34,685 nucleotides of DNA from Reclinomonas americana ATCC 50394. Lineage: Eukaryota. This document shows, piece by piece, positions 5,895 to 31,026 of this stretch. The DNA lies in the NCBI GenBank assembly GCA_048213135.1, contig PS015043.1:153382-188066 (forward strand). The letters run 5' to 3'. Position 1 is the stretch's first letter, and each line of letters begins with the position of its first letter. The notes under the pieces are model-generated. The model searched no databases, was not told the DNA's origin, and worked only from the letters and a program-made list of their open reading frames with translations. A program made the position numbers and the translations under genes.

Positions 5895-6479
5895 GGAAAC
5901 CGGCATCGTCGAGACGCGCTAAGGGCGGTACGAGCGCTGCAAGAAGTTGTGCAGCAGGAAGCTCTTTTGCTTGCAGAAACGCAACTGTTCGATATCGTCC
6001 GTCACTCGCGATCAGCTCAAGTTGGGGGTCGACTTGCAAACCGGCTTCACATGCACTGAGGTGCGCTGAAGAGAGTGCTTTCGGGCTACAAGATGCTGTG
6101 CAGCTACTGGCGCTGTCGCGTGCAGAAACGCAGGTCGCTTCGACTTTGTTACGAATTCGAACACTTGCAATTGACCAGTTTTGTGCTCCTTCCGACTTTG
6201 GACGCCAACACCCTCGCTGCGTTTGTGCATTCGTGTGGAGCCCAGCTTGTCTCGCGATCGTGCTCTGGTCTCTCTTGCATGCGCTGCGCAGGACAGATCA
6301 AGACTTCGATATCGATATATATCGCGATCAATGCGCTGCGCGCAGTGCGATCAGCTTCCACACTTCTTGTTTCTGGGCTGTCTCCGTTTCCGGTGCTCGC
6401 TCACGGTGCTGCTCCTGCAACAACCAGCCACGCTGTTACTTTTGTTGAGCGAGCGCGTCCTGTCAAATCCCCTACACCC

Positions 6480-7649
6480 ATGTTCCTGCGCCAACCAAAC
6501 ATCCACTCCACCGACTCCTCCTCCGCCCCACTCACGTGCGTCGCCGTGTCGCCCGACGGACAGCATGTGGCGAGCGGAGGCCGCGACCACACCGTGCGAG
6601 TGTGGTCACTGGCGAGTGGGCGCGAGGTGCAGCGACTGGTCGGGCACCAGTCGCCAGTGACGTGTGTGGCCTTCATGGCCTGCAATGGAGGTGTGGTCAG
6701 CGCGAGTGCCGACGCCACGGTGCGCGTGTGGTCGCAGGGACAACAGGTGCAGCTGCTGGAGGGGCACTGTGAGTGGGTGGCGTCGGTGGCGACTCTGTGT
6801 GAGGAAGAGAATGGGCGCCTGGTGGTGAGCGGCGGTTCGGATCGGACGGTGCGGGTGTGGTCGGCGGAGAGTGGCACGCAGGTGCATCGGTTGACGGGGC
6901 ACGCGGGCGTGGTGTGGTCGGTGGCGCTGACGCCGGTGCACATTGTCAGCGGGAGCGAGGACAAGACGGTGCGAGTGTGGTCGGTGGAGAGTGGGTGTGA
7001 GGTGTGGTGCTTGGAGGGTGCGCATGATCGCGCGGTCAGGTCGGTCGTGTTCACGCCCGACGCGCTTCACATTGTGAGCGGCGGATTCGACATGATGGTG
7101 CGCGTGTGGTCCATGGCGACGGGCGAGGAGGTGCGGCGGTTGGCGGGGCACGAAGATGGGGTGTATGCGATCGCCATCACGGCTGACGGGGGGCGTGTGG
7201 TGAGCGCGAGTTGGGACGGCGCGGTGTGCGTGTGGTCGATGGAGAGTGGCGAGCGAGTGCAGCAGGTGGAGGGTCACCGCGACGGTGAATTCTCCGTGGC
7301 CTGCACTCGCGACGGGCAGCACATTGTCAGTGTCGGAAACGACGAGAATGTGCGCGTGTGGTCCACGCCGGGTGGTCTCGCGCGGTGGGAGCTCGACGAT
7401 GCGCGGTTGGCGGTGCGGGGTGTGAGGGAGGTGATGCAGAAAAAGGGGGAGGAGGAGGGGGAGGGGGAGGAGGGGGAGGAGGGGGAGGGGGAAGAGGGAG
7501 AGGAGGGGGAGAAGGAGAAGGAAGTGGAGAAGAAGAATAAGGAGGTGGAGGACGAGGAGGCGACGGAGGAGCGCTGCTTGGTGGAGATTGTGCTGCGCTG
7601 TTTCATCGTCGAAGAGGCCAAGGTTGTGCTGCGGAGGTGCTTCGGATGA
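6480..7649 (+). CDS. Intronless 7-repeat WD40 beta-propeller protein with acidic insert and conserved C-terminal tail (WD40-A)
   Basis: Seven GH...VSGxxDxTVRVW repeats in ORF 6075..7649. The ATG at 6480 sits just before repeat 1. Tail: ELDDARLAVRGVREV...ERCLVEIVLRCFIVEEAKVVL. Confidence 0.88.
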   Translation: MFLRQPNIHSTDSSSAPLTCVAVSPDGQHVASGGRDHTVRVWSLASGREVQRLVGHQSPVTCVAFMACNGGVVSASADATVRVWSQGQQVQLLEGHCEWVASVATLCEEENGRLVVSGGSDRTVRVWSAESGTQVHRLTGHAGVVWSVALTPVHIVSGSEDKTVRVWSVESGCEVWCLEGAHDRAVRSVVFTPDALHIVSGGFDMMVRVWSMATGEEVRRLAGHEDGVYAIAITADGGRVVSASWDGAVCVWSMESGERVQQVEGHRDGEFSVACTRDGQHIVSVGNDENVRVWSTPGGLARWELDDARLAVRGVREVMQKKGEEEGEGEEGEEGEGEEGEEGEKEKEVEKKNKEVEDEEATEERCLVEIVLRCFIVEEAKVVLRRCFG

Positions 7650-8366: not shown

Positions 8367-8665
8367 CTGAAGAGACGCACTCGGCGACCGTCCACCAGTG
8401 GCCACACGCGCACGCCCGCATCGCTGCATCCGCATGCCACGTATCGCCCGTCCGCGGACACTGCCACGCTTCGCATGGAGACTCCGCACGATCGACCGCC
8501 GAGCCAGCGCACCTCCTCGTTATGTAGCAGGGAGTACATGCGCAGGTGGCCGTAGTCGTCGGCGCTGATGACGTGCTGGCCGTCGGGGGTGACGGCGACC
8601 GACCACACAAAGGTGCGGTGCTTCGGGTGCATTTGTTTGCAGGTGTGGGGGGAGGAGGAGAACAT
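8367..8665 (-). CDS. WD40 repeat protein fragment (WD40-B), two repeats visible, cut by an N gap; may be a pseudogene
   Basis: MFSS...PKHRTFVWSVAVTPDGQHVISADDYGHLRMYSL...RSVAVSADGRYVACGCSDAGVRVW. No WD40 sequence resumes after the gap at 8347-8366. Confidence 0.65.
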
Positions 8666-8816
8666 CCAGAAGGGGAAGGGAAGAGGGAGGAGGGGGGGGG
8701 GGGGGGGGGAAGGAAGGGAGTGCGTGCGTGTGTTCGGAAAAAATGAAATGAGCTGCTGGACAACAGGCGACGGAAAAAAGTTGTCACGTGGCGCCAATCA
8801 AACAAGCCAAGCCAGG

Positions 8817-9779
8817 ATGAGTGCCANNNNNNNNNNNNNNNNNNNNNNNNNNNNNNNNNNNNNNNNNNNNNNNNNNNNNNNNNNNNNNNNNNNNNNNNNN
8901 NNNNNNNNNNNNNNNNNNNNNNNNNNNNNNNNNNNNNNNNNNNNNNNNNNNNNNNNNNNNNNNNNNNNNNNNNNNNNTGGACACACGCATGCGGTGAATG
9001 CCGTCGCCTTCACGCCCGACAGTCGCCACGTGGTGAGTGGCAGTCACGATGAAACAGTGGTGGTGTGGTCGGTGGAGAGCGGAGCAGTCGTGCGGCGACT
9101 GGAGGGACACACGAGTGGTGTGCTGGCGGTGGCGGTGGCCCCCGACGGCCGCCACATTGTCAGCGGGAGTGGAGACAATGAGCGCGCGGTGCGAGTGTGG
9201 TCGGTGGAGAGTGGCGCACTGGAGCGGCAGCTGCCAAAGCACCTCACTCGTGTCACCTCGGTGGCCGTCACTCGCGACAGTGAGTTTGTGTTGAGTGGCG
9301 CCGACGATGGCGAGTTGCGCATGTATTCGCTGGCGCGGGGCGACATTGTGCGGCGATTCGAGGGGCACACCGGGCGAGTCATGTCGCTGGCGATGGCAGT
9401 GGACGGTGCGCACATGGTGAGTGGCAGTGGCGACAAGACCATTCGCGTGTGGTCGCTGGCGACGGGAGAGGAGACGCGACGGGTGGTGGAGCACCAGTCG
9501 GAGGTGTATTCCGTGGCCGTCACGGTGGACGGGGAGCGCGTTGTGAGTGGCAGCTGGGACAAGACGGTGCGGGTGTGGTACGTGCCGTGTGCGCGCACGC
9601 AGCATGAGCTCGATTGTGCGCGCTCGGCCTTGCGGGCGGTGAGGGAGATGCAGGCGGAGAAGGAGGAGGACAAAGTGGAGCGGCGGTGTCTGGTGGAGAT
9701 TGTGCTGCGGTGCTTTATTGTGGAGGAGGCGGAGGTGGTGCTGCATCGGAGGCGCAGTGATCCGACGTTTCATTTTTGA
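8817..9779 (+). CDS. WD40 repeat protein (WD40-C) with the conserved C-terminal tail; 5' part obscured by a gap, start uncertain
   Basis: Five WD40 repeats are visible after the gap (from 8978). Tail: ELDCARSALRAVREMQA...ERRCLVEIVLRCFIVEEAEVVLHR. The ATG at 8817 is tentative. Confidence 0.85.
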   Translation: MSAXXXXXXXXXXXXXXXXXXXXXXXXXXXXXXXXXXXXXXXXXXXXXXXXXXXGHTHAVNAVAFTPDSRHVVSGSHDETVVVWSVESGAVVRRLEGHTSGVLAVAVAPDGRHIVSGSGDNERAVRVWSVESGALERQLPKHLTRVTSVAVTRDSEFVLSGADDGELRMYSLARGDIVRRFEGHTGRVMSLAMAVDGAHMVSGSGDKTIRVWSLATGEETRRVVEHQSEVYSVAVTVDGERVVSGSWDKTVRVWYVPCARTQHELDCARSALRAVREMQAEKEEDKVERRCLVEIVLRCFIVEEAEVVLHRRRSDPTFHF

Positions 9780-10806: not shown

Positions 10807-11889
10807 ATGACCTCCCCACTCCTCTCCCTCTGCGCCACCCCCCTCGGCGACTTCTCCCCCCAACACTGCGTCGCCTTCACCCCCGATAACCAGCACTTTG
10901 TGAGCGGCGGCGAAGACCACGCCGTGCGCGTGTGGTCCGTGGCCACTGGCGCACAAGTGCAAGAGTTTGGCGAGCACACCGACGAGGTACTATGCGTCGC
11001 CGTCACTCCCGACGGCAGCCACGTGGTAAGCGGAGGCAGTGACATGACTGTGCGAGTGTGGTCGCTGGCGACGGGCGAGGAGGTGCGCAGACTGGAGGGC
11101 CACACCATGTATGTCAGCTCAGTGGCTGTCGACGACCTGCACATTGTCAGTGGCAGCTGGGACAAGACTGTGCGCGTGTGGTCACTGGCGACAGGCGAGG
11201 AGATGCGACTCTTCAACCGGCACACTGGGTGGGTGCTGTGTGTGGCCATCACCGTCGACGGGCGGTATGTGGTGAGTGGCGGCACGGATCGAGTGGTGCG
11301 CGTGTGGCAAATGGACAATGGACGCGAGGTGTGCCACCTGGACGGGCACGTCGACGGTGTGCAGTGCGTTGCGGTCACGCGCGATGGTCGGCATGTGGTC
11401 AGTGGTGGCTCGCGGGATGGCATGGTGCGAGTGTGGTCGCTGGTGACGGGCAAAGAGGTGCAGCGGTTGGATGGACGTGTGCATGCGGTGAACTCGGTGG
11501 CGATCACGGTGGATAGTCAGCGAGTGGTGTGCGCCAGCAATGATTGCACTGTGCGCGTGTGGTCGCTGGCGAGTGGCGAAGAAGTGGCACCGAGGGTGAA
11601 AGTCGATGCGTGGAGCGTGGAGGCGGTCGCTGTCAGTGCGGATGGGCAGTTTGTGGCGAGTGCCGGCGGTGGCGAAATGGCGCTGTGTCTGTGGGCGACG
11701 CCGTGTGGGCTCGCGTCTCGTGAGCTTGCGCGGGCGCGGTTTGCTCTGCGCGCGGTGCAGGAGATGCAGGCGGCGGAGGGCGAAGTGGAGCGGCGGTGTC
11801 TGGTGGAGATCGTGCTGCGCTGCTTCATGGTGGAGGAGGCGGAGGTGGTGATGCATCGCTGCGCGACAGATCCGGCGTTGCGACTGTGA
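10807..11889 (+). CDS. Intronless 7-repeat WD40 protein with the conserved C-terminal tail (WD40-D)
   Basis: 360-aa ORF with seven WD40 repeats. Tail: ELARARFALRAVQEMQA...ERRCLVEIVLRCFMVEEAEVVMHR. Confidence 0.9.
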   Translation: MTSPLLSLCATPLGDFSPQHCVAFTPDNQHFVSGGEDHAVRVWSVATGAQVQEFGEHTDEVLCVAVTPDGSHVVSGGSDMTVRVWSLATGEEVRRLEGHTMYVSSVAVDDLHIVSGSWDKTVRVWSLATGEEMRLFNRHTGWVLCVAITVDGRYVVSGGTDRVVRVWQMDNGREVCHLDGHVDGVQCVAVTRDGRHVVSGGSRDGMVRVWSLVTGKEVQRLDGRVHAVNSVAITVDSQRVVCASNDCTVRVWSLASGEEVAPRVKVDAWSVEAVAVSADGQFVASAGGGEMALCLWATPCGLASRELARARFALRAVQEMQAAEGEVERRCLVEIVLRCFMVEEAEVVMHRCATDPALRL

Positions 11890-16288: not shown

Positions 16289-18315
16289 AGGGAGAGAGTG
16301 ATACTGAGTGTGTGAGGGAGACACGAAGTGGGGTCGAGAGGAGTCACGCTTTTTGCCGACTTTGTGTCGTTGTCTATTGACATTCACTTTTAACAGCTCT
16401 TGGGCCTGGTGACGAGGAATGGTTGGAGGCGATCAAGAAGCCGCTTCTCGAGATGCTCAAGGACGCCACGAGCACTCGCTCGGTCAATGGTTTCATGGAT
16501 CCCTACAGAAAGGCGCTGAAGAAGGTCAACGACTACAACCTCGACATTCAGCAGACGAGCAAGGTGCAAAGTGCGCTGGTGCAGAGCATGGGAAGCGCTT
16601 GGACTGGTACGTGTGCACTTGGCAATGCGCAACACGACGACGTGTTCACTCATCGCACGACAGCCCTCGTTCGTGACGCCCGGGAGTACGAGAAGGACGC
16701 GGCCGCTGCTCTCGAGGTGTTCACGTTGTTGGACAACGCCACAGTCGACTCNNNNNNNNNNNNNNNNNNNNNNNNNNNNNNNNNNNNNNNNNNNNNNNNN
16801 NNNNNNNNNNNNNNNNNNNNNNNNNNNNNNNNNNNNNNNNNNNNNNNNNNNNNNNNNNNNNNNNNNNNNNNNNNNNNNNNNNNNNNNNNNNTGTGCTCTT
16901 CAATTTGCGCGGTGATGGTTCGGATACAATAGCGGGTTCATTACTTTGATTGCTGCGACTGAGACTCTTCCCTGCAGACCCGGCTCTCTGGGCGAATTAC
17001 CTGGAGAAGCTCGAGACGGACATTTTTGGAGCTCACCGAATTCGTGAGTTCCGCATCATGTTCTTCTGTCTGTCTTGTCGGTTGCTGACTGTGAGTGCGC
17101 AGCCGAGGATCAGCAGAACATGCAGCGCTGGCACGTGGCTGCCTACATTGCGACGAACATTGCTGCCGAGCACGATATGCCCCGCCTGGTATGCACAGCT
17201 CATTCCCTCGTTTTGCATTCCATCTCCCACTCTGCTCACTCTTCTCCTCACACAAGGTGCCCGTGGAGGTGGCCAAGCGTGCGGCGACAATTCTCCGAGC
17301 CTGCGTTGAGAGTTACAAGCGGCTCCACCCGCGTGGTTCTGATGTCGACACTCTGCCGATGCAGATGCAACTGGCCGCGGCACTGCGCGCCTCGGGCATG
17401 CACGACGAGGCCGCAGCGTTGCTGGCGGGCCTGATTGACAAGGGCACACTTCTCCTTCAGACGCTGTCAGGCAGCATCACTCTGCAGCGCAACGTCGAGT
17501 TGGAGCTGGTGCAGTTGCAGCGCCGGTTGGCACTGGTGCTCTACGACTCTGGCAAGTACGACGACGCGGTGGCGGTACAGGAGAAGGCCGTCAGGTCGAT
17601 CAGCAGGCTCCTCGGCGACAGCCACCCGAACACCATCGTGGCGCGCAGTCACTTGTGGATGGCCAAGGTCAAGGCCGCTCGCCACCAGTCGGTGACGCCC
17701 GACTACCGGGAGGCACTGGACGCACAGTTTGAGGCGCTGTCGGTGGCGGAGAGCATGTTTGGCCGTCATCATCCCATGACGCTAATGGCGTGCGGCTTCC
17801 TCGCGCGGACCATTTGCAAGCAGGGCAACTATGACAAGGCGGAGCGCATGCAGCGCAGCATGCTGGCGGCCAATCGCCGACTGTACGGCTACTCGGACCA
17901 CCGCGCCGCCGAGGCACAATCGGCGCTCGCGCTGACGCTGCGTGCGAGAGCGGTGCGCGGTCGCGTGTCGGACGCCGAGCGAGCGAAGCTGCTGCAAAAG
18001 GCGGAGGGCATGCTGCGTCAGGTCTGTTCGCAGCTGGCAAGCACAGTCGGCGCCGCCAGCCAGGCTACCATTCGTGCGCAGTGCCGGTTGGCGTCGACGC
18101 TGTTCTACGAGGGCAAGTACGAGGAGGCGCGGAGAACGCAGCAGGTGGCGTGCAATGCTTCACGGCAGCTCGGAGAGCAGCATCCGCTGGCGAGGTCGAG
18201 CCAGGAGAAGATGGAGCGGATTGTGAGGAGGATGGCGAGAGAGGTGGGAGGTGGTGGTGGTGGTGGTGCAGCTCCGGAGTTGGCGGGGGCGGGGGTGGTG
18301 GTGGGTGGGAGGTGA
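12127..18315 (+). CDS. Class-3-lipase-like alpha/beta hydrolase fused to KLC-type TPR repeats. Exons: 12127-12180, 12281-12754, 14061-14345, 15693-15833, 15899-16247 (spans gap), 16397-16917 (spans gap; possible 57-nt intron 16607-16663), 16978-17043, 17103-17188, 17257-18315
   Basis: Spliced product reads DTIVVL|VDHKHREINICIAGTR, LHGHSLGSTI|ALWL (nucleophile elbow at 14322-14336), YSNEEDPLT (candidate catalytic Asp) and GHSARHF (candidate His). The last exon has LGDSHPNT, FGRHHPMT...QGNYDKAE and LGEQHPLA, typical of kinesin-light-chain-like TPRs. The fusion depends on the phase-1 intron 16248-16396 (G|GTTCGT...TAACAG). Confidence 0.75.
15516..15655. repeat. Intronic tandem duplication, two copies of ~60-70 bp
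   Basis: TGTGTACAGGAGAGATGGGCGACGA(G/A)ACTGTGTCCGTTCTTTTCCTTCCTATTCA occurs twice. It lies next to a gap, so it could be an assembly artefact. Confidence 0.7.
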
Positions 18316-18443
18316 TGGGAAAGAGTGAAAGGCCCGACGACGTCTTCATATCCTGTCGACAGGAATTGGAAATCCGGCAAAAGCCGGCAGACAGCAAGCT
18401 CGACTCGCATTGCATTTCTCTCATCTCTCTCGGAGAGCACACA

Positions 18444-21011
18444 ATGGTTCTTATTCGCCGTGTGTATGTCATCCGACGGCAGCTGAGCTTCCTGCCACAA
18501 GGCACAGAGCGCGGTGTGCTATCGCACTCGGCTCTGCTGCTCGAGCTGGAAAATGCTAAATTCATGATTCTCGAGGTGATGCACACTGCGGCATGTTCTC
18601 TTGCCGATGCGCATTGTCGCTCACTGTTGCTGTCTAGTTCTCTGTGGCGACACGCAAAGGCGCTGAACGCAGCGACGGTCAAGTGTGTCTCTACGGCGTG
18701 CAAGTGTATGACGACGAGGAAGATGTGGGCGACCTGGTGGGATGGGTCGAACGGCTGCGGCGGTACTACAACAGACTGCGTCGCAAGGATGTGGTGACGA
18801 TTGTTACTCGACCAAAGCAACGCGATGGCAAGCGCTTTGCTTGGGTGCGTCAGAAGAACGGGCAGCAGCCGGTTGGACGCTGGACGCCCGAGAGAGCGGC
18901 CGAGACCATGGAGAACCTGATGCAGGACGGCTACTCGGTGCTTGCGGAGGAGTATTGCCATTCGGCGCAGGAGCGCACGCGGGAGGCCATGGGCATTAGT
19001 GTGGAGTGCGGGCGGTCCAGCTGCGCACGCAAGGGTGTTGGTGCGTCGAGTGCGGCGGTGCATGCTGCGATGCGAGCCGACGGCGAGGCCGGAGAAGGCA
19101 GTCAGCCACGTGGTGGTGGCAGCGGTTCTTCTGGATCCGGAGGAGCCGTGAGGCGTCCACAACAACAGGGTGAGCCGTCGCCGCCACGTGCTGTGGCTGG
19201 TGGCGGCAGCGGTTCTTCTGGATCCGGAGGAGCCGCAAGGCGTCCACAACAACAGGGTGAGCCGTCGCCGCCACGTGCTGTGGCTGGTGGCGGCAGCGGT
19301 TCTTCTGGAGGAGCAGCGAGGCGTGCACAGCAGGGTGAGCCGTCGCCGCCGCGCGCACAACAAGGTCAGGCTGCTGGTGGTGGCAGCGGTTCCTCCGGAG
19401 AAGCGGCGAGGCGTCCACAGCAGGGTGAGCCGTCGCCGCAAGGTCAGGGAGCGGCTGCTGGTGCTGCAAGAGGCGGTGCTGCTCGTGGCCAGCCGGGACG
19501 CAGGAGACAGGAGGACGAAGACGAGCCGGAGGAAGAGGAAGAGGACCCGCAAGAAGATGAGGTAGAAGATGGAGAAGAAGAGGGAGGCGTTCGGCATCGA
19601 CCACCGCCGGATGATGACGATGAGGAGGACGACGGCGGCTCGCACAACTCGCACCACGTCAGCGATCGCAGGGGAGGTTATGTACGGCGTGCGCCGCCCA
19701 ACAGCCGTGGCGGAGTGTACTACGGTCCACCACCCAGTGCGGCAAGCGAGGCCGCGGGTGGTGACCTGCCGGTGGAGCACTTTAACCCCAACGTAATCGG
19801 TGCGACCATGCGTTTGGTTCTGCAATATGTGTTTTCGCGAGTATTCGGACGTTTCTCACGAAATATGCACTCATAACGCAGACGCCAGTGGCATGACGGC
19901 AGGTTTTGTCGAAGGTGTCTCGCGATTTGCGGAGGCCTTTAGCAATCTGCGATTCAAGGAGACGCCGGTCGCATTCTTCCAGCTGGCAGTAATTATGCCA
20001 CGAACCACGCATTTTGAGATGAAGAGACACGACCCCCTCTTCTGCGGCAATCAAAATGTCAGCTATGAGGAGAAGGCTCGGTTCAACCACCTTCTCATTG
20101 GCACGCCCGCCGAGTTGCAGCATGCTCATATGATTGGGGTGCGTCCGTATCCCCACTTTTTCCAGGCTGCCTACTGCCTGTTCCATCTTCTCACGTGGTG
20201 AAACGCTCTTGCAGGAGTTCAAGGCCAAGAACGAGATCCACCAGAAGAGTTCCGTGTTTGCCGTCAGACTGGGCGTCGGTGTGGGCCCTATCAGCGTAGG
20301 CGTCGGTATGGGGCTTGCGCGTGGTAGCAGTCACCAGCACATTGAGATGGACGCGCAGCTGGAGGGCGAGCTGTTGGATGCGCGCGGCTATGCGTTCACT
20401 TGTGAATGCTGCGGACACAACCAGTTTACTCTGCAAGGGGTCATTCGTAGCCTCAAGGCAGATTCGAAGGTACGTCAGCTGCGCATGGATGAGGGCGCCG
20501 ACGTGCGAGTGGAGTCGCTGCCGGGCTCCACGGGAGTGACTGTTCACCGGAGGGAGACCGGTGCGTTGACAAAGCCCTGACACTGACCGTTTTTTTGTGT
20601 GTCACTCACACACACTTTAACTCAGATATCAGCTTGCATGCGCGACAAGAGGAGGAGGAGCGCGAGGAGCGCGCAACTTTCCGAGGGGCTGCCAGTCAGG
20701 CTCCTCCTCGAGCCGCCGCGGCTCCTCGCGACCGCGATGCCGACGACGCTCTGGCACAGGTGCAAGCGATGGTGCGGGCGCAGAGCGTGGACGAGTTTTT
20801 GCGAGAGAGCGTGCAACCCCGCTACAACTGGCCTGCTGACGACCTCGAAATGGCGGTGGCGGTACTCAGCAGCCTCGACATTCACAATGTCGGGCAGTTG
20901 GTCGATCAGTGGAATGGCGCCGACATGAGGGCGGCACGCGGACAAGACGGTCTGCTGCCTCGGCCGCAGGATATTTTGATGGCGGTGGTTGATGCTGGAT
21001 TGCGACCTTAG
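18444..21011 (+). CDS. Multidomain protein: permuted papain-like (PPPDE/LRAT-type) peptidase domain, Gly/Ser/Gln repeat linker, acidic tract, unknown domain X, small helical C-terminal domain. Exons: 18444-18575, 18638-19799, 19882-20138, 20215-20560, 20626-21011
   Basis: All four introns are GT..AG with consistent phases. SHSALLLELENAKFMILE|F (His at 18525) and GYSVLAEEYCHSAQERTR (Cys at 18956) match the His-first, Y-x(5-6)-C layout of permuted NlpC/P60 enzymes. The 3' half is independently supported by the paralogue at 21173-22287. Confidence 0.75.
19105..19445 (+). repeat. Coding minisatellite, about 4 copies of a 78-90-bp in-frame unit (GGGSGSSG(SG)GAARRPQQ(Q)GEPSPPRA)
   Basis: GGCAGCGGTTCTTCTGGA...CAGGGTGAGCCGTCGCCGC repeats four times without a frameshift. 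Confidence 0.9.
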
Positions 21012-21172
21012 TTAGAGGAGGGGGAAAGAAGTGAATTATCCCAGTCGCAATGCACGTGCATTGGAAGTCTTCTATTTCGCTGTCCTTGAAACTCACTGTT
21101 CCTGTACATGTCGACGAGGAGCTCGTCACTTGCAAGGAATGTACGGTACTTTCCATTGGCTCTTCTTCTCCT

Positions 21173-22287
21173 TCAAGGTGATCGCAAACTAGCATCAAAC
21201 ACCGCCATCAAAATATCCTGCGGCCGAGGCAGCAGACCGTCTTGTCCGCGTGCCGCCCTCATGTCGGCGCCATTCCACTGATCAACCAGCTCCCCGACAT
21301 TGTGAATGTCGAGACTGCCGAGCACCGCCACTGCCATCCCACAGTCGTCATCCGACCAGTTGAAACGACGCTGCACGCTCTCTCGCAGAAACTCGTCCAC
21401 GCTCTGCGCCCGCACCATCGCCTGCACTTGCGCCAGAGCGTCGTCCGCATCGCGGTCTGGAGGGGGAGCTTGCTGCGCTGGATCGCGGACATCTGCGGGC
21501 TGTTCGCGCTCCTCCTCCTCTTCCTCAACCCTCCGAAGCACGGCCACTCCCCTTGAGCCCGGCAGCGTCTCCACTCTCACCTCGGCGCGCTCTTCCTCGC
21601 GCAGCCGACGCACATGCGAATCTGCTCGGAGGCTACGAATGACGCCGTCCAAGGTGAACGAGGTGTGCATACACGATTCACAGGTGAAACTGTAGCCGCG
21701 TGCCTCCAGCAGCTCGCCCTCCAGCTCTGCGTCCATCTCAATGACCTGGCGAGCTCGTCCGTGGGCGCGCCCTACACCCAGGCCCACGCTAATGGGTCCC
21801 ACATTGACGCCCAGTCTGACGGCGAATACAGTGCTCTTGTGGTGGATCTCGTTCCTGGCAGTGAATTCCTGCAAGAGAGAGCAACACTTGAGAGCGTGCA
21901 ACGAGCCGCAGTGAGAAGAGCGAAGAACGCACTCCAATCAATTGCGCCCGTTGCAACTCCATAGGGTTGCCATGCAACAGGTGATTGTATCGCGCCTTCT
22001 CCTCAAAACTGGCCTCCGGATGATTGCCGCAGTAGTTCGGGTCGTGTCGCATCATCTCTTCGTGCGTGTTCCGCGGCAAAATGACCGCCTGCCTGAAGAA
22101 TGCAGCCGGCGTCTCCGCGAACTGCACTTCGCGAAAGGTCTCGGTGAAGCGAGCGATGCCTTGGGCATATGCTGGCGTCATTCCACCTTCGGCTGCAAAA
22201 TGAGTGTGAGTGGAACGACTTCTTCCTGCTCGCTGTGCATCGCAGCGCAGGAATAAAGGCACACACACCGGGGACAAGGTGTGCCAT
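21173..22287 (-). CDS. Inverted paralogue of 18444-21011 with only domain X and the C-terminal helical domain (no peptidase). Exons: 22287-22269, 22192-21933, 21868-21173
   Basis: Clear alignment to the + gene: ETPAAFFRQAVILPR vs ETPVAFFQLAVIMPR, and FAVRLGVNVGPISVGLG vs FAVRLGVGVGPISVGVG. Two intron positions are shared and the frame is intact. The first exon and start are tentative. Confidence 0.8.
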
Positions 22288-22550
22288 CTGCAACTCGCGA
22301 GTGGGTGTTGGTCTGCAGTGAGAAGCGCTCGCTTGTGACCCCCGATCTCTCGCTTTCTGTCTCCGTCCTGTCCGGTCACTTCGTTGCCGGAAATGATTTT
22401 GATTGCAGAATTCGTTGAAAGCGTCGTTTCACTGAGATTCTTGTAAGGTTTCCTGGTTCTGGTTCTCGCATACATGCAGCACTCCTGAGAAGTTATGTGC
22501 GACGAAGTGTATAAAGAGGCTCTTCGCCAGTAGCAGCTACTGCACGCTGG

Positions 22551-22728
22551 TCCTGTCGGCTAAGATGCTTGCCGGAATTGAAACCTGGCGACGACAGCTG
22601 GAATTCCTGCCGCATGGCACACAGCGCGGTGTGCTGTCCCACTCGGCTCTGCTACTAGAGCTGGAAAATGATGCTCGAGGATGGCGCGAGAGGTGGGAGC
22701 CGGTGGTGGTGGTGCGGCTCCGGAGTTG
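22551..22728 (+). pseudogene. Scrambled relic: a copy of peptidase exon 1 joined to a copy of the 3' end of the TPR gene
   Basis: ~22589-22671 encodes RRQLEFLPHGTQRGVLSHSALLLELEN, matching ~18473-18555. 22677-22728 (GAGGATGGCGCGAGAGGTGGGAG...GCTCCGGAGTTG) matches 18228-18282. No catalytic-Cys exon follows. Confidence 0.75.
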
Positions 22729-22805
22729 CCCAGCACGACCATGGTGTCTTCCTTGCACTGATGTGAAAGAATGACAGTAGTACACACGAATGTTTTGATC
22801 CTATT

Positions 22806-25800
22806 TTACTCCACTGCAGCCGACACAACGGGCGCCGGTGTTGCCTCGGCCAACAGCTGAGCGGCCAACTCACGCGCATCGTCGGGCACCTTGCCACGCA
22901 CACCACCGTCCACCACTCCGCCGGCAGCCGCGAACGCAGCAATGATGCGCCACTGGAAGGTGTCGCGCTGCGGAGAGGAGAAGGGGGACGCAGGGAAGAG
23001 AGTATAAGAGGCGGCACTGTCTCGAAGAGAGAGAGAGAGGGAAAGGGAAAGGGAAAGAGGGATAGAAAGAGAACCGACTAATTTGAACAAAATCTATTGC
23101 GCTGCGGGGAGGAAGGGGAAGAGGCAGAAGGAGAATATTAGAGCAGGGCACTGGCTCAAAAAGTGAGAGATTGAGCAGCGTGGCAGTGCAGAGAAGTGAA
23201 AAGGGAGATGTGAAGCAAGAGAATGCAAGACTGGGCACCGTCTCGAAGAGAGAATAAGAAACAGATTCCAGAGAACGCATTCGAGACGAAGGCTTCGCGC
23301 TGCGGAGAAGTTAAGAGACGGACAAGAACCAAGAAAAGGAAGACTAGGCATTCGATCGAAGTGTGCGTGAGAGCACTATATGCAAAGAAGGGAAGAGGGA
23401 GACTGGAAACAGAAGTGGGCACTCGATTGAAGAGAGAAAAAGCACAGATTAGTGCTGCAGAGAAGTGAAGAGGGAGACAGCAAGCAAGAGAATGCAAGGC
23501 TGGGTACTGGCTCTGTAAGAGAACAGGATAGGGATTCGAAAATACGCATTCGAAAGGAAGGCATCGCGCTGCGGAGAATAAGAGACGAACAGGAACCAAG
23601 AAAAGGAAGACTGGACATTCGATCGAATTGTGCGTAAGAGCACGATACAGAGCTGCAAAGAAGGGGAGACCGAGACAAGAAACAAAAGAATGCAGGGGTG
23701 CAAGGCCACAGAACAGTGCTGCAGAGAAGTGAAGAGGGAGACAGCAAGCAAGAGAATGAAAGGCTGGGCACCGTCTCGAAGAGAGAATAAGAAACAGATT
23801 CCAGAGAACGCATTCGAAAGGAAGGCATCGCGCTGCGGAGAAGTGAAGATGGAAGACATGAGAACATGAAAGACTGGAACTACCTCGAAGGGAGAGAAGG
23901 AACACATATGCATTCAAGAGCAATAGTCAATCGTACAGTGTATAGAGAACCATGACCAAACAAGAGAATGCAACACTGAGCAGAGGAACACTATAACCCA
24001 ACACTTTCTCTTTCCCTCTCTACCCCCACACGCAACTCCCCCCACCGGCCGCCTCTCCAACTGCCGCAAAAAATTACGCAGCAGCGACTCCTGATCCACC
24101 TCCTCCAAATCCGCAAACGCCCGACTGTTGCCCGGCTCCAACTGAATCAACACCGTAATAATATCGGCCGCCGCCGCCAGCACCTCATCGGGCACCTCTC
24201 CGCCCACAGTGGCCACCGCCGCCGCTGCTGGCGCTCCTGATCCCGATCCACTTGCACCTCCCGCATCGGCATCCTCCTCACTCTCTTCCGTGACTCCACC
24301 ATCACCCTCCTCCTCTTCCTGATCTTCACCCTCCTCCCCCTCATCATCCTCGTCACCGTCATCATCGTCATCTTCATCGTCGTCGTCGACGGCGCGTGCC
24401 TCCAGCGACAGCAAGTCCGGCAGATCGCACCCCGTGCAAATCGCAAATGCAGTGTACTCGGGAGACACGGCATTCTGAGTTGCTCGTTCAAGTGAGGGAA
24501 GGGCGTCAACACACTAGAATGGCAAGGCAGGAACACACCTTGTAGCCCTCGAGAAGAAGCCACCGCTTCACTTGCTCGGCCAGTCGTTCCTCTTGCGCGA
24601 GGAGTGTCACCTGTCGCCCCGAAAGTGAGTGATGATTGCGAGTGCTGTGCATCTTTGTGGGGGGCACACGTAACGATGAAAATGCGACCCCACGTCGAGG
24701 TGGCGATGCCGAGCTGCACGAGCGGGGCTTCGAAGAATTGCAGCGTCTGCAGGGTGATAAAGGGTTGTGAGCAATAGAGGAGAAGGCCAGGGATTGTGAA
24801 AAGCACAGGAGAAAGAGAGTGGAAGGGAAAAGGAGAGTGAAAGGGGAAAGGAGAGTGGTGGCATTCAGTAGCGGGGATATCGGCAAGGCCAATGGTTGTG
24901 GAAGAACTGGAATCTTTGTGAGAATGAGAGTGGAAGACAAAGGCGTCATGAGAACTGTTGTTGAAAGGCCGAAGAATCGCGGAATGACGACGAGAGCGAG
25001 ACTGGAATTGACCACAGAAAGAAACACAGCGAGGCGAAGAAGGGGAACATTGGACAGGTGCAGGGAGGAGAAGAGCAGACTTGCATGGACCAGCATTCTG
25101 CACAGTGCGGCAGTCGCGAGAAGTGGTAAGTGCACTGACTTCGACATACCTGGAAAAACACACGCGCAGAGTACCACGTGAACTCCTCGCAGCAGCCTAC
25201 AGTCATCGTCGCCTGCGCATCGAAATCAGTGTCTCGCAACGCCTTCTCCTCTTCTACTTCCTTCCGCTGAACTAACCTCATAATCCTTCTCCGTCATCTG
25301 CTGCGCGCTGAGCGACCACAGCAACAACCCGGCCTTCACAACCACACGATCCGGACTCTGACGCACAAGTGCCTGCCACCCAGCGCGCACTCAGCAGACG
25401 CATCACACACAGGAAGCGCCACAAAAATGCTCGCACCTTGGCAAACTTGTAGCACATTTCACCGTCGAGTCCCTTTCTGCGCTTTTGCAGTCCCTTGGAC
25501 AGCTGCATCAGCAGAGTGAGCACAGCAGAGACTGAAGCAGGTCTCATCATTAGCACCAGCACGCAACTCGCTCCATCAACGGAAACGCGCTGGCGATAAA
25601 GGGCGTCTTGTCGTGCGTGTAGGTGGTGGTGAGAAACTCGTAAAACTCAATTACTGCCGTCGCCAGCTCGGCAGCGTTCGTGCCGGCGGCCAGCACGCGC
25701 GCAAGCAGGTCGTGGAAAGTGTCCACATGCGACGCATCCTCGGCGTCCGGGTTGGTGTAGAAAAAGTGTCCGTCCATGCTGCCTGCGTGGTGGTGGTGGT

Positions 25801-25906: not shown

Positions 25907-27591
25907 GGCGCGGAAGGGGCTTTCGGCGACCACTGGATGGGGGAGGAAGAGATGAGCAAGGGAGCAAAGCCGCAGATCGCGACAAGTACCCATTCAATCA
26001 CATCACAGTTATGCACACTCCGGCACACATTACAAACGATGATGCAAAGATGAGAGACGAGGAGAAGGCGTTGAGTGGTGACAACGTGAGGGTGCTGAGC
26101 GGTGACAAGGAAAAGGTGCTGAGTGGAGACAAAGAAATCATGCAGAGTGGGCATCACGATTATGACTGACGCAGTATGAGCTCCAGAGAGTACAACTCAA
26201 TGCAAATAGGGAATCGACGGAGGACAGATTAGCAGTCACAGTTTCAGAGTGCAGCACTGACTGAGGGAGCGGGCTGTTGCATGATGCAATGCAGACAAGC
26301 ACCCAACAGTTCAGCAACAAACAGACATCATCGACAGGTCATGGCAATGCAGAACGAGCGACGGTACGATGTAGAAGCGAGAGTGCCGAGTAAGAACACG
26401 CACTGAACCTGCGGAGAGCCAAGCGACAATCGAATCCTCTCGGCGAGTGCTTCTGCTCGTCGCTTGCAAACTCACTCAACCCTCATTACTGTGACGCCAT
26501 CTGTGCTTCTCTTTTTGCTCTTCTGTGGCCTTGTTTCCGCCTCTTCACACTCTGCTTCTGTTCTCAGAATCTTTGCCTGTTCTCTCGGTCCCTCTTAAAC
26601 ACTCTCCATTTCTATGCTTCTCTCTCTCTCTCCCATCTGTTGCTATTCTGTATTCTCTATTCTGATTCCACGTTACTTTGCATCTGCATTTCCTCACTCC
26701 TTGTGCTTCCTCCTCTGAAGTTCCTCCGTTTCCGCCTCCTTGTCTCTCAGTTTCTGCTTTGAACACGCTTGTTTGTCTGCCTCTCTCGGTCCCTGTCAAT
26801 CACTCTCTCCATTCTCGTGCAGTACTCGCTCTCTCAGGTGCTCTGGCTCTTCTCCTTTTTGCTGCCTTGTAACTCGGCATCTGCAATTCCTCTCTCTTTG
26901 TGTCGCTCTAGCTCGTCTCGTTTCTGCTGCCTCCGAANNNNNNNNNNNNNNNNNNNNNNNNNNNNNNNNNNNNNNNNNNNNNNNNNNNNNNNNNNNNNNN
27001 NNNNNNNNNNNNNNNNNNNNNNNNNNNNNNNNNNNNNNNNNNNNNNNNNNNNNNNNNNNNNNNNNNNNNNNNNNNNNNNNNNNNNNNNNNNNNNNNNNNN
27101 NNNNNNNNNNNNNNNNNNNNNNNNNNNNNNNNNNNNNNNNNNNNNNNNNNNNNNNNNNNNNNNNNNNNNNNNNNNNNNNNNNNNNNNNNNNNNNNNNNNN
27201 NNNNNNNNNNNNNNNNNNNNNNNNNNNNNNNNNNNNNNNNNNNNNNNNNNNNNNNNNNNNNNNNNNNNNNNNNNNNNNNNNNNNNNNNNNNNNNNNNNNN
27301 NNNNNNNNNNNNNNNNNNNNNNNNNNNNNNNNNNNNNNNNNNNNNNNNNNNNNNNNNNNNNNNNNNNNNNNNNNNNNNNNNNNNNNNNNNNNNNNNNNNN
27401 NNNNNNNNNNNNNNNNNNNNNNNNNNNNNNNNNNNNNNNNNNNNNNNNNNNNNNNNNNNNNNNNNNNNNNNNNNNNNNNNNNNNNNNNNNNNNNNNNNNN
27501 NNNNNNNNNNNNNNNNNNNNNNNNNNNNNNNNNNNNNNNNNNNNNNNNNNNNNNNNNNNNNNNNNNNNNNNNNNNTCCTTCGTTCGTTGTC

Positions 27592-27638
<47 letters not shown>

Positions 27639-27747
27639 CTCTCTCTGTCTCTCTCCCTCCCCCTCTCACTCTCTCATTCTCATTTCCTTTCCCCTTTGAT
27701 CTCTCTCTCTCCCTCCCCCTTCCCCCTCTTTCCCCCCTCCCCGCAAC

Positions 27748-27874
27748 TCTCATCTCCGCGCTCCAACAACTGCTGCTGCCGGAGCATCGCATCATTCATC
27801 TTGCGCGTCAACCCCGAGAACAGCGAGCGCCGTTGTCCCACACGAGGCACCACTGACAAGTTCAAGTGATCCAT
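27748..27874 (-). CDS. Possible first coding exon of an unresolved gene (MDHLNLSVVPRVGQRRSLFSGLTRKMNDAMLRQQQLLERGDE)
   Basis: ATG-initiated, complex-sequence island ending at A|GTTGCGG. It is followed by purine-rich intron-like sequence and a ~640-nt gap. Downstream exons were not resolved. Confidence 0.35.
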
Positions 27875-28262
27875 GGATGAACTGGCGCGCACACGAAAGA
27901 GAGAAATTGAGTGAGTGCTCGTGCTCGTGCAGATGCACATGCACAGCGCGAACTTCACACTCTCACACGCTCACTTTTTTTGCTCTTTCTCGACGGATGC
28001 TGGGTACAGGTGGTCGGTTGGTTGATTACGTGCACTCTCCTCTCGCAAAGATGACTGCGGAAAGCTGTGATTGATGCGCAGGACACCAAGGACAAGTGAT
28101 GGTTGATTCCTCGTCCAGCCTTCGTGCAGCTTCATAGCCCCAACTGTTCTTGATTGTATTCTACTCTGACTGCTTCAGCACTGGCCTTCAAGGCAAAACT
28201 GTCACCATTTAGTGTCGACGTTGATATCGGATTCACGATGTGGCTGCAACAAGCCAGCTGTG

Positions 28263-28772: not shown

Positions 28773-29823
28773 TCACTCCCTCACCCCCCTGAACAGATAG
28801 TTCCGGGGAATCCCATCCTCCGGCGAGTTATCGCGCGGATAATCCTCCACAAACTTCTTCGACGCCGCCGGAATCAACCCAAAATCGGCCTCCGCGTCGC
28901 CAAACTGACTCACCGTCACGCGAAAGCCGAGCTCGGCAAACCACGGCTCCGGTTTGTTCACGCCGCACACCGGAAGCGCACCGTGCCGGCCCCACACCTC
29001 CCGCAACTTGGCCACCGCCGGCGACGTCATGTGCAACTCGTTCAGCACATCGCCGCACACCACACTGCCCGGGGCACACAGGTGCGCCACGCGACGCATA
29101 AACGTCTCACAGTCGGCCAGCGGCAGGTACATGAGCAGGCCCTCGAGCAGCCACACACTCGGCTGCGTGGCGTCGTAGCCGGCGGCCACCAGCGCGCGCT
29201 CCCACTCGTCGCCCGCGGCCAAGTCGGCGGCCACCGAGTGAATGGCGGCACACAGTGGCGCCGCCGCCTCCTGCTGCACGCTGTCGAGCACGCGTCGTCG
29301 CATCTCCATCACCTCCGGCACATCGATCTCGTACACGTGCACGTGGGCCAGCACCTCGGCGGCGGGAGGCGGGGCCAGTGGGCGCCAGAAACGCGCGTCA
29401 CCACCAATGCCGGGAATGACGACTTGGCGGGGCGCAGCGGAGGAGGAGGAGGAGGAGAGCGCCTCGGACACTGCGCGGTCCATGAACAGCACGCGTGCGT
29501 TGGCGTAGTCGGAGAGCGCGGTGACGGTGGTGTGCAGTGAGGAGGCGAGGTCGTCGAGGAAGTCGCTGAGGGGAAGGGGGGGGGGAAAGGGTGGGTGGAA
29601 AGGGGAGAAGGGCGGGGAGGAGAGACGGACAACTCACCGTCCTTCTTTGCCTGCAAACGCCTCTGCAAAGGGATCGACAAACTGGCGCACGGAGTCGTCC
29701 TTGGCGGTCTCCAGAGCGCGGCAGGCTGCACATGGAGGCACAGAGAGCATGAGTAGGCAAGAAACGGGGGAAGTGGGAGAGAAAAGAGAGAGGAGAGAGG
29801 GGGAGAGAGAGACAGAGAGAGAA

Positions 29824-29856
<33 letters not shown>

Positions 29857-31026
29857 AGAGAGCGGGAAACCAGAGAAGAGCGGGAAACGAGAGTTGCAAG
29901 GATGGGAGGGAGGGAAGAAAGAGAGGCGAAAGACAAGAGAGAAAGGTTGGGAGCTTGTCTGTCTTTCTCAGATATCACAATCAAACTTCATAAGCAGTTG
30001 TCTCTGTTTTNNNNNNNNNNNNNNNNNNNNNNNNNNNNNNNNNNNNNNNNNNNNNNNNNNNNNNNNNNNNNNNNNNNNNNNNNNNNNNNNNNNNNNNNNN
30101 NNNNNNNNNNNNNNNNNNNNNNNNNNNNNNNNNNNNNNNNNNNNNNNNNNNNNNNNNNNNNNNNNNNNNNNNNNNNNNNNNNNNNNNNNNNNNNNNNNNN
30201 NNNNNNNNNNNNNNNNNNNNNNNNNNNNNNNNNNNNNNNNNNNNNNNNNNNNNNNNNNNNNNNNNNNNNNNNNNNNNNNNNNNNNNNNNNNNNNNNNNNN
30301 NNNNNNNNNNNNNNNNNNNNNNNNNNNNNNNNNNNNNNNNNNNNNNNNNNNNNNNNNNNNNNNNNNNNNNNNNNNNNNNNNNNNNNNNNNNNNNNNNNNN
30401 NNNNNNNNNNNNNNNNNNNNNNNNNNNNNNNNNNNNNNNNNNNNNNNNNNNNNNNNNNNNNNNNNNNNNNNNNNNCTCTCTCCCCAGTCTCCTTGCACAC
30501 TCTGTCTCTCGCACTCTCACTCACACACTCACTCCCACATACTCTTTCACACACTCTTTGCCTTCCTCTTTACAAAATCTCAAAAATCAGACAGTCATCT
30601 TGCACCCTGTCCCTCTCACTCAACGTTCTCTTTCTCACACACACACTCTCCCTTTGCACACACTGCCTCCCTCACACACTCTTTCACACACTCTTTCACA
30701 CACTCTTTCACACACTCTTTATCTTTCTCTCTACAAAAATCTCACACTCAAATCTCACACTCAATCTCTCCTCTTTGCCCCGTTCTTCCTCTCACTCACT
30801 CACTCTATCTGTTTGCCTCCTCTCTCTCTTTCTCTCTCTCTCTCACACACACTCTTTCACACACTCTTTTTATCTCTCTCTTTACAAAAATCTCACACTC
30901 AATCTCTCCCCTTTGCCCCTTTCCCTCTCTCTCACACACACTCACTCTCTCCTCTTTGCCTCCTCTCTCACCAGCCATATACTGCGCCGTTCGCGCCAAC
31001 ATCACTTGTTGCTCCCTCTCGCACAT
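28773..31026 (-). CDS. SAM-dependent methyltransferase of the leucine carboxyl methyltransferase (LCM) superfamily, like the mycobacterial putative methyltransferases. Exons: 31026-30972, 29725-29638, 29565-28773 (alternative start 31067 via a 47-nt intron)
   Basis: Spliced product: LARTAQYMA|ACRALET...FVDPFAEAFAG...ARVLFMD...RQVVIPGIGGDARFWR...VYEIDVPEV...VAADL...W...L...GYDATQPSVWLLEGLLMYL. This is the characteristic motif series of the family, and intron phases are consistent. Confidence 0.9.

Follow-up and report, generated by a model that had tools for sequence, protein, structure and literature searches.

A tail-to-tail pair of intron-bearing orphan paralogues in Reclinomonas americana, one of them carrying a candidate permuted thiol enzyme domain

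What kind of genetic unit is formed by two convergent genes that share their C-terminal domains, when one of the two carries in addition a long front part of its own? The question is raised by a stretch of 34,685 nucleotides (nt) from Reclinomonas americana ATCC 50394 (NCBI GenBank assembly GCA_048213135.1, contig PS015043.1, positions 153,382 to 188,066 of the forward strand), analyzed here as a whole and called the window. In it, gene A on the plus strand and gene B on the minus strand lie tail to tail, with their stop codons (21009-21011 in A, 21173-21175 in B) 161 bp apart. In both, a domain of ~195 amino acids (aa), here named X, is followed by an acidic linker and then by a helical C-terminal domain of ~95 aa, here named C. 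The front part unique to A spans 431 codons (exons 1-2, 1294 nt) and consists of a ~165-aa domain running through His28 and Cys151, the N domain, followed by a repeat and acidic linker. The reading that we favor, to which we give slightly less than an even chance, is that of a lineage-restricted, intron-bearing X-C gene family present as a tail-to-tail inverted duplicate, in which the front part of A would be a candidate permuted thiol enzyme on a tether.

The duplication itself is readily seen. A repeat search of the window delimits an inverted duplication of 1.1 kb (19868-21005 on the plus strand against 21182-22206 on the minus strand) made of five colinear blocks with 72-89% nucleotide identity. 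When pieces of A were searched against the window with tblastn, B was recovered with 59% aa identity over 86 aa in the first part of X (X1, E 2e-33), 72% over 105 aa in the second (X2, E 7e-41) and 85% over 100 aa in C (E 5e-52), alignments that place the similarity of the two proteins far above chance. In the same search exon 2 of A, with most of the N domain and the linker, had no match in the window besides itself, and exon 1 had one extra partial copy (22577-22669, plus strand, 77% over 31 aa). The first-pass annotation of this DNA had described paralogues facing each other 161 bp apart and sharing X and C, with a His...Cys N-terminal domain in the plus-strand gene only. The inverted-repeat blocks, the tblastn matches and the positions of the stops bear out the first statement; the second agrees with exon 2 of A matching itself alone and with the 6-codon mini-exon that B has at the homologous acceptor.

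The predicted gene models argue for common descent down to the intron level. Gene A has five exons and encodes 760 aa, with introns of 62, 82, 76 and 65 nt, the first of which runs from GT to AG; gene B has three exons on the minus strand, with introns of 76 and 64 nt, and encodes 324 aa, or 314 aa if started at the conserved ATG at 22181. Each spliced frame is open up to a single terminal stop, and the splice signals of both models are all intact; the donors of the six modeled introns are GTGCG in four cases, GTGAT in one and GTGTG in one, and GTTGCG in none. The intron within X occupies the same position in A and B, with a GTGCGT donor and a CTCTTGCAG acceptor in both, and the nucleotide alignment shows that its bodies have diverged with indels. 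In that alignment the homology between the genes continues through the acceptor 11 nt before the conserved ATG and then ends. This acceptor is in phase 1 in both genes, and the mini-exon of B and exon 2 of A both end in phase 1. The last intron of A (20561-20625, 65 nt) has, together with ~21 nt of flanking coding sequence, no counterpart in B (21529-21557). As many as 28 GT-AG pairs would preserve the frame for this intron; two of these have the GTGCG-type donor at 20561, and of the two just 20561/20626 has its acceptor after a pyrimidine-rich tract. As for the RNA of the pair, the 161-bp spacer implies that the 3' untranslated regions of A and B must overlap or be very short, and a read-through RNA across 21012-21172 would form a long imperfect hairpin.

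Are both copies real genes? We scored codon usage in all six frames with log-odds trained on the WD40, TPR and leucine carboxyl methyltransferase (LCM) open reading frames (ORFs) of the window. The predicted frame is the sole positive one in nine of the ten scored exon segments of A and B; in exon 1 of A an antisense frame is also positive, with a lower score, and the repeat linker of A fails the scoring. The spacer, the sequence upstream of B and the remnant copy described below gave no coding signal in this six-frame score. The ratio of nonsynonymous to synonymous divergence (dN/dS) between the two copies, calculated by the Nei-Gojobori method, is 0.32 in X1 (dS 0.87), 0.32 in X2 (dS 0.62), 0.18 in C (dS 0.31) and 0.30 over all 292 codons (dS 0.56). 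Neutral drift was also simulated for one copy at 0.28 substitutions per site, half of the overall dS, in 3000 runs each: the frame was still open in one run for B (0.03%) and in four for the X-C part of A (0.13%). Because the overall ratio is 0.30 and neutral drift so rarely leaves the frame open, A and B are both maintained at the protein level, and these comparisons indicate purifying selection on each of them. It had been proposed that both frames are intact and maintained, with dN/dS between the copies as the check, and this proposal has stood up well: the value is not near 1, the splice signals are intact and open frames are rare in the simulations.

Divergence between the copies is unevenly distributed. 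dS drops toward the center of the palindrome, from 0.87 to 0.62 to 0.31, and A and B share an identical run of 84 nt; when the 186 mismatches found in 875 aligned nt were permuted 10000 times, no run of that length arose. The centerward drop and the identical run together argue for gene conversion near the palindrome center; since the identity found there extends to synonymous sites, protein constraint alone is insufficient as an explanation. By this pattern, the 3' ends of A and B are homogenized by gene conversion. Palindromic gene pairs homogenized by arm-to-arm gene conversion are known elsewhere, sex-chromosome palindromes being an example. The A-B pair resembles them in its tail-to-tail arrangement, its short spacer, an identity that rises centerward and an identical tract beyond chance. 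Unlike them, it has old arms that have diverged (dS up to 0.87), conversion that is limited to ~300 nt, and one arm that gained a different 5' part.

Table 1. Features of the A-B locus and its flanks (positions in the window; in donors, a slash marks the exon end).
Feature	Position	Strand	Description
TPR_10/TPR_12 repeat ORF	17095..18315	+	Ends 128 bp before the ATG of A; Pfam TPR_12 E 1e-21
A exon 1	18444..18575	+	44 codons; His28, Glu44; donor GAG/GTGATG; codon score +0.30
A exon 2, first 125 codons	18638..19012	+	Remainder of the N-terminal alpha/beta domain; Tyr144, Tyr150, Cys151 ('EEYC'); codon score +0.48, this frame only
A exon 2, low-complexity part	19013..19799	+	Ends in phase 1; donor TCG/GTGCGA; coding status uncertain
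A exon 3 (X1)	19882..20138	+	Conserved ATG at 19893
A exon 4 (X2)	20215..20560	+	Glycine-zipper hydrophobic segment, CxxCxH cluster
A exon 5	20626..21011	+	Acidic linker, ~95-aa helical C domain, stop
Spacer between the stops of A and B (palindrome center)	21012..21172		161 bp; no coding signal by six-frame codon score
B exon 3	21173..21868	-	X2, acidic linker, C domain, stop; 231 codons, single exon
B exon 2 (X1)	21933..22192	-	ATG at 22181; acceptor homologous to that of A intron 2
B exon 1 (mini-exon)	22269..22287	-	19 nt: ATG, 5 codons and 1 nt, phase 1; donor CCG/GTGTGT; followed by 76-nt intron
Remnant	22565..22735	+	Exon-1-like 22589-22670 (87% to 18474-18555), then TPR-3'-end-like 22677-22728 (87% to 18228-18282)
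Inverted-repeat block	19868-20053/22021-22206		72%
Inverted-repeat block	20060-20144/21927-22011		72%
Inverted-repeat block	20206-20554/21529-21877		77%
Inverted-repeat block	20647-20712/21457-21522		73%
Inverted-repeat block, innermost	20724-21005/21182-21463		89%; 282 nt

What, then, could the front part of A be? In the spliced model the N domain presents His28, Glu44, Tyr144/Tyr150 and Cys151, a residue order that follows that of the circularly permuted NlpC/P60 thiol enzymes (LRAT, YiiX and PPPDE types). The permuted catalytic order of His, a polar third residue, a signature Tyr and a Cys near the C-terminus of the domain is thus found in the N domain of A, as a pattern of low specificity and in a single sequence. 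The permuted NlpC/P60 protein BcPPNE has His49, Glu64, Tyr127 and Cys154, in a structure whose N-terminal subdomain is a sheet and whose C-terminal subdomain is helical (Xu et al., 2011; PMC3142127). The N domain of A is alike in that its putative catalytic His lies on an N-terminal strand, an acidic residue follows ~16 positions later, and then come a Tyr and, toward the C-terminal end of the domain, a Cys, which a low-confidence model of A would place close to the start of a helix; the spacing from His to Cys is 105 residues in BcPPNE and 123 in A, and the ~165-aa domain of A is of similar size. It differs from the permuted NlpC/P60 enzymes in having neither a profile match to the LRAT, C92 or C97 families nor a confident fold, and the architecture downstream of it in A (repeat and acidic linker, X and C) occurs in no library searched.

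The structural leads are faint. AlphaFold models were made from single exons rather than from spliced products, and in the AlphaFold2 (AF2) model of residues 1-125 of exon 2 the Cys is residue 107, in a helix spanning 105-118, with a mean predicted local distance difference test (pLDDT) of only 45.1. In the ESM Atlas, whose scores here are at or below the level of a mere lead, the top three clusters are unnamed and belong to giant viruses (0.88-0.91). The nearest named ones are PPPDE (0.85), IcsB_M (0.84), TseH (0.83) and DUF3750 (0.83), all of which we take to be papain-like. The N domain is split by an intron and each half was scanned alone in Pfam: LRAT (PF04970), Peptidase_C92 (PF05708) and Peptidase_C97 (PF05903) gave no match at E<=10 for exon 1 (44 aa) or for residues 1-125 of exon 2, and none at E<=1 for longer ORFs (hmmscan). 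The N-domain pieces had no match in Pfam, NCBIfam, PHROGs or PADLOC other than a sub-threshold one to Csx21 in PADLOC (E 0.007). A papain-like or permuted NlpC/P60 identity had been put forward in the first-pass annotation, and it did not find the support expected: there is no significant profile match and the pLDDT is 45, which leaves the residue order and the sub-threshold Atlas neighbors as hints. Residue order and weak language-model leads nevertheless point to a papain-like N domain, an assignment that we hold tentatively and consider plausible rather than probable. The remnant copy also preserves the His strand of exon 1 without change across 15 residues.

Between the N domain and X, the linker of A extends over ~270 aa, with G/S/P/Q-rich repeats of 29-30 aa (19111-19439), an acidic run and a G/Y/P-rich tail; tandem-repeat periods of 87, 90 and 21 nt are found in it. 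The indels between its repeat units are all of 3, 6, 12 or 24 nt, multiples of three, which speaks for translation of the linker; we keep the 760-aa model of gene A as the most likely of those considered. A donor-like site in phase 1, AGG/GTGAGCC, recurs in each linker repeat (19170, 19257, 19335 and 19425, plus strand). The phase of these four sites is the one needed by the acceptor at 19881, so alternative 5' splicing could vary the length of the linker in steps of one repeat. Upstream, an in-frame join of the TPR ORF to exon 1 of A is formally possible through an intron of 83 nt (GAG/GTGATGG...ACAG), and codon-usage scoring found no coding signal in 18316-18443, the 128 nt before the ATG of A.

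The hydrophobic glycine-zipper segment of X is kept in both copies, with a Kyte-Doolittle mean, taken over 19 aa, of 1.64 for A and 1.57 for B, and X may associate with a membrane. X also conserves between the copies a Cys in 'CGN' and a CxxCxH cluster, and this Cys/His cluster might bind metal. Homology of X to the gasdermin N domain or another known pore-former was found nowhere in Pfam, and its sole PADLOC match, to DruB (E 0.075), is sub-threshold. Weak matches in NCBIfam (NF005608; E 0.006 and 0.017) and to PDB 2wie (E 0.009) connect the X2 segment with ATP synthase subunit c. Like the first transmembrane helix of the F-type c subunit, the segment has a GxGxGxG-type glycine-zipper stretch followed by a polar turn; unlike the c subunit, X has no second hydrophobic helix and scores 16-17 bits against a cut-off of 128. 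We rejected this relationship as far under the family cut-off and regard the resemblance as compositional. In the AF2 model of B exon 3, whose overall pLDDT is 45.9, the C domain is predicted as four helices (pLDDT 60-78). Its ESM Atlas leads are EcoEI_R_C (0.85) and SAM_TNK (0.79); it has no Pfam match above threshold and no Foldseek match at E<=0.001, the Foldseek output including a few rows for the C-terminal domain of RNA polymerase alpha at probability <=0.21. A complex prediction pairing the C domains of A and B scored 0.01 and gave no answer.

Relatives of the pair were sought widely. Pfam at E<=10 gave no match for five of the six A/B pieces, and PHROGs, PADLOC and NCBIfam gave sub-threshold matches only. 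Word-indexed homologue searches with residues of the B ORF and with the N domain, at near and longer lengths, returned nothing, and no related locus was found in viral contigs or metagenome contigs. An exhaustive HMMER search with B exon 3 (231 aa) against 1.84 billion representatives yielded two matches, both rejected as they align only via the repeats of repeat proteins over the acidic linker. The PDB sequence matches, limited to a designed repeat protein and the weak c-subunit matches, were likewise set aside, and fold searches with the single-exon AF2 models were uninformative. Rfam found no RNA family in 17000-24000. The architecture of A is not described in the literature searched on permuted papain and glycine-zipper proteins and on LRAT/NlpC domain architectures, supplements aside.

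The genes stand in a neighborhood of ~60% GC in which genes are split by short GT-AG introns and separated by purine-rich low-GC tracts. To the left of A lies the TPR ORF, and to the right of B lies the remnant, whose two pieces are 6 nt apart and in an order opposite to that of the intact locus at 18228-18555. The remnant is probably a deletion scar within a former tandem TPR-A array, and the locus has undergone more than one rearrangement. Immediately to the right of A and B, a purine-rich low-complexity region contains a tandem array (23187-23849) with a period of ~267 nt and three copies, 78-92% identical. Further away the window contains three WD40 beta-propeller ORFs on the plus strand (6075-7649, 8568-9779 and 10807-11889; Pfam WD40 E 1e-46 to 1e-55), which may be tandem paralogues or exons of a single giant gene. 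The sole matches of the third in a pattern scan of genome contigs are two Asgard archaeal loci from metagenome-assembled genomes, at 35-38% identity. There are also an LCM ORF (28776-29633, minus strand, Pfam E 9e-27) and an LRR_6 ORF, and the one-kb stretches 1001-2000, 27001-28000 and 30001-31000 combine a GC content of 0.23-0.28 with a GC skew of up to -0.80 and an AT skew of up to 0.54, between genes of ~60% GC. Scans that could miss small exons found no NACHT or NB-ARC domain, either in the 80 ORFs of at least 90 aa across the window or in the 44 on the plus strand that measure 40 aa or more and lie between 11.7 and 17.4 kb, ahead of the TPR ORF.

How the pair arose and what it does can be proposed on the favored reading. 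An ancestral orphan X-C gene would have duplicated head-out, and the conserved phase-1 intron of one copy, A, would have been the point at which a front part was acquired, which may be a flexibly tethered thiol enzyme of the permuted papain-like kind. A would then be a thiol hydrolase or acyltransferase whose flexible linker tethers the enzyme to X-C, and X-C would give localization or partner binding. B would be the enzyme-free form of the X-C module and may compete or co-assemble with A. Gene conversion homogenizes the 3' ends beside the palindrome center, and purifying selection keeps both copies. Both the enzymatic identity of A and any contact between A and B are things that we infer. Several points weigh against this reading. 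Neither profile, nor sequence, nor fold evidence places N, X or C in a known family. The His-Glu-Tyr-Cys order is a loose pattern drawn from a single sequence; the Atlas scores to named clusters are all below 0.9, and four of the ten best family-bearing matches share the clan of the best one, a constellation rated as probably wrong. The hydrophobic segment of X contains Arg and Pro and is only borderline (Kyte-Doolittle 1.6). Finally, in the expected frame of the linker the codon-usage score is -0.51 and the score for the choice among synonymous codons is -0.36, and a perfect phase-1 donor at 19041 (TTG/GTGCGTC) could remove the linker as an intron of 841 nt.

The simplest alternative is that A and B are ordinary orphan paralogues with no functional coupling, the N domain being non-catalytic and its His and Cys coincidental. 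This is unlikely, in our view, yet it is a contender to be taken seriously: no family library recognizes the N domain and the Atlas leads fall short of their threshold, whereas these residues agree in order and spacing with permuted NlpC/P60 enzymes, and the remnant keeps the His strand unchanged. Slightly less likely is that gene A has been mis-modeled. X-C could be a gene of its own that starts from the ATG at 19893, separate from a gene for the N domain (whether or not the linker belongs to the latter); or 19041-19881 could be one intron, giving a protein of ~480 aa; or A could be fused to the TPR ORF. Such models would draw on the negative codon usage in the linker frame and the phase-1 donor at 19041, on the conserved ATG that directly follows the acceptor in both copies, on the in-frame TPR-to-exon-1 join, and on the remnant, where an exon-1-like piece adjoins a TPR-tail-like piece. 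They run counter to the phase at the end of A exon 2, which equals that of the B mini-exon at the homologous intron, to repeat-unit indels that are all in frame, to the size of the other introns (62-82 nt vs 841 nt) and to the lack of coding signal in the gap before the ATG of A.

At its base, the locus holds two orphan paralogues of an ordinary kind, one of which has an additional domain; a two-component, co-assembling or defense function of A and B together is possible, with gene adjacency as its sole support. Taken to its full extent, this would be a so far undescribed two-protein module of eukaryotes in which A tethers a permuted-papain enzyme through a disordered linker to a membrane-active, glycine-zipper X, and B co-assembles via the conversion-homogenized C domain as substrate, regulator or decoy, in the manner of protease-activated pore-former pairs; we hold it to be highly improbable. 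Still less probable is a defense or cell-death module, in which the Cys peptidase of A would activate a membrane-active X in cis or in B, by analogy with the protease-gasdermin gene pairs that occur in bacteria and fungi. As in those pairs, a putative Cys peptidase adjoins a protein with a hydrophobic, possibly membrane-active segment, and the conserved glycine zipper of X, the dynamic locus with its remnant copy and the TPR and WD40 genes nearby could all be accommodated. In contrast to those pairs, A holds the putative enzyme and X in one polypeptide and B is an X-C paralogue, not a distinct substrate; moreover A and B lack homology to gasdermins and do not look fast-evolving, dN/dS values of 0.18-0.32 giving no sign of an arms race, and our searches found no gasdermin, pore-former or PADLOC family, and no NACHT/NB-ARC in the window ORFs scanned. 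Lowest of all we place the idea, barely credible to us, that the palindrome acts mainly as RNA, as a read-through hairpin or a source of small RNA, with B incidental. Tail-to-tail arms of 1.1 kb, reaching 89% identity and with an 84-nt perfect run beside the loop, would suit such a role, but a hairpin leaves the protein-level constraint on both arms unexplained (dN/dS 0.30, splice sites, open frames), and the outer arms are just 72% identical.

As matters stand, the locus mainly illustrates an inverted duplicate kept by selection, gene conversion acting locally near the center of the palindrome, and paralogues that differ by an intron present in just one of them. Should the front part of A prove to be a permuted NlpC/P60 enzyme, that superfamily would gain an architecture new to it, in which the enzyme is linked to two domains without detectable relatives. 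In that case the pair would also be a clear example of young paralogues of which one has acquired a domain at a conserved intron.

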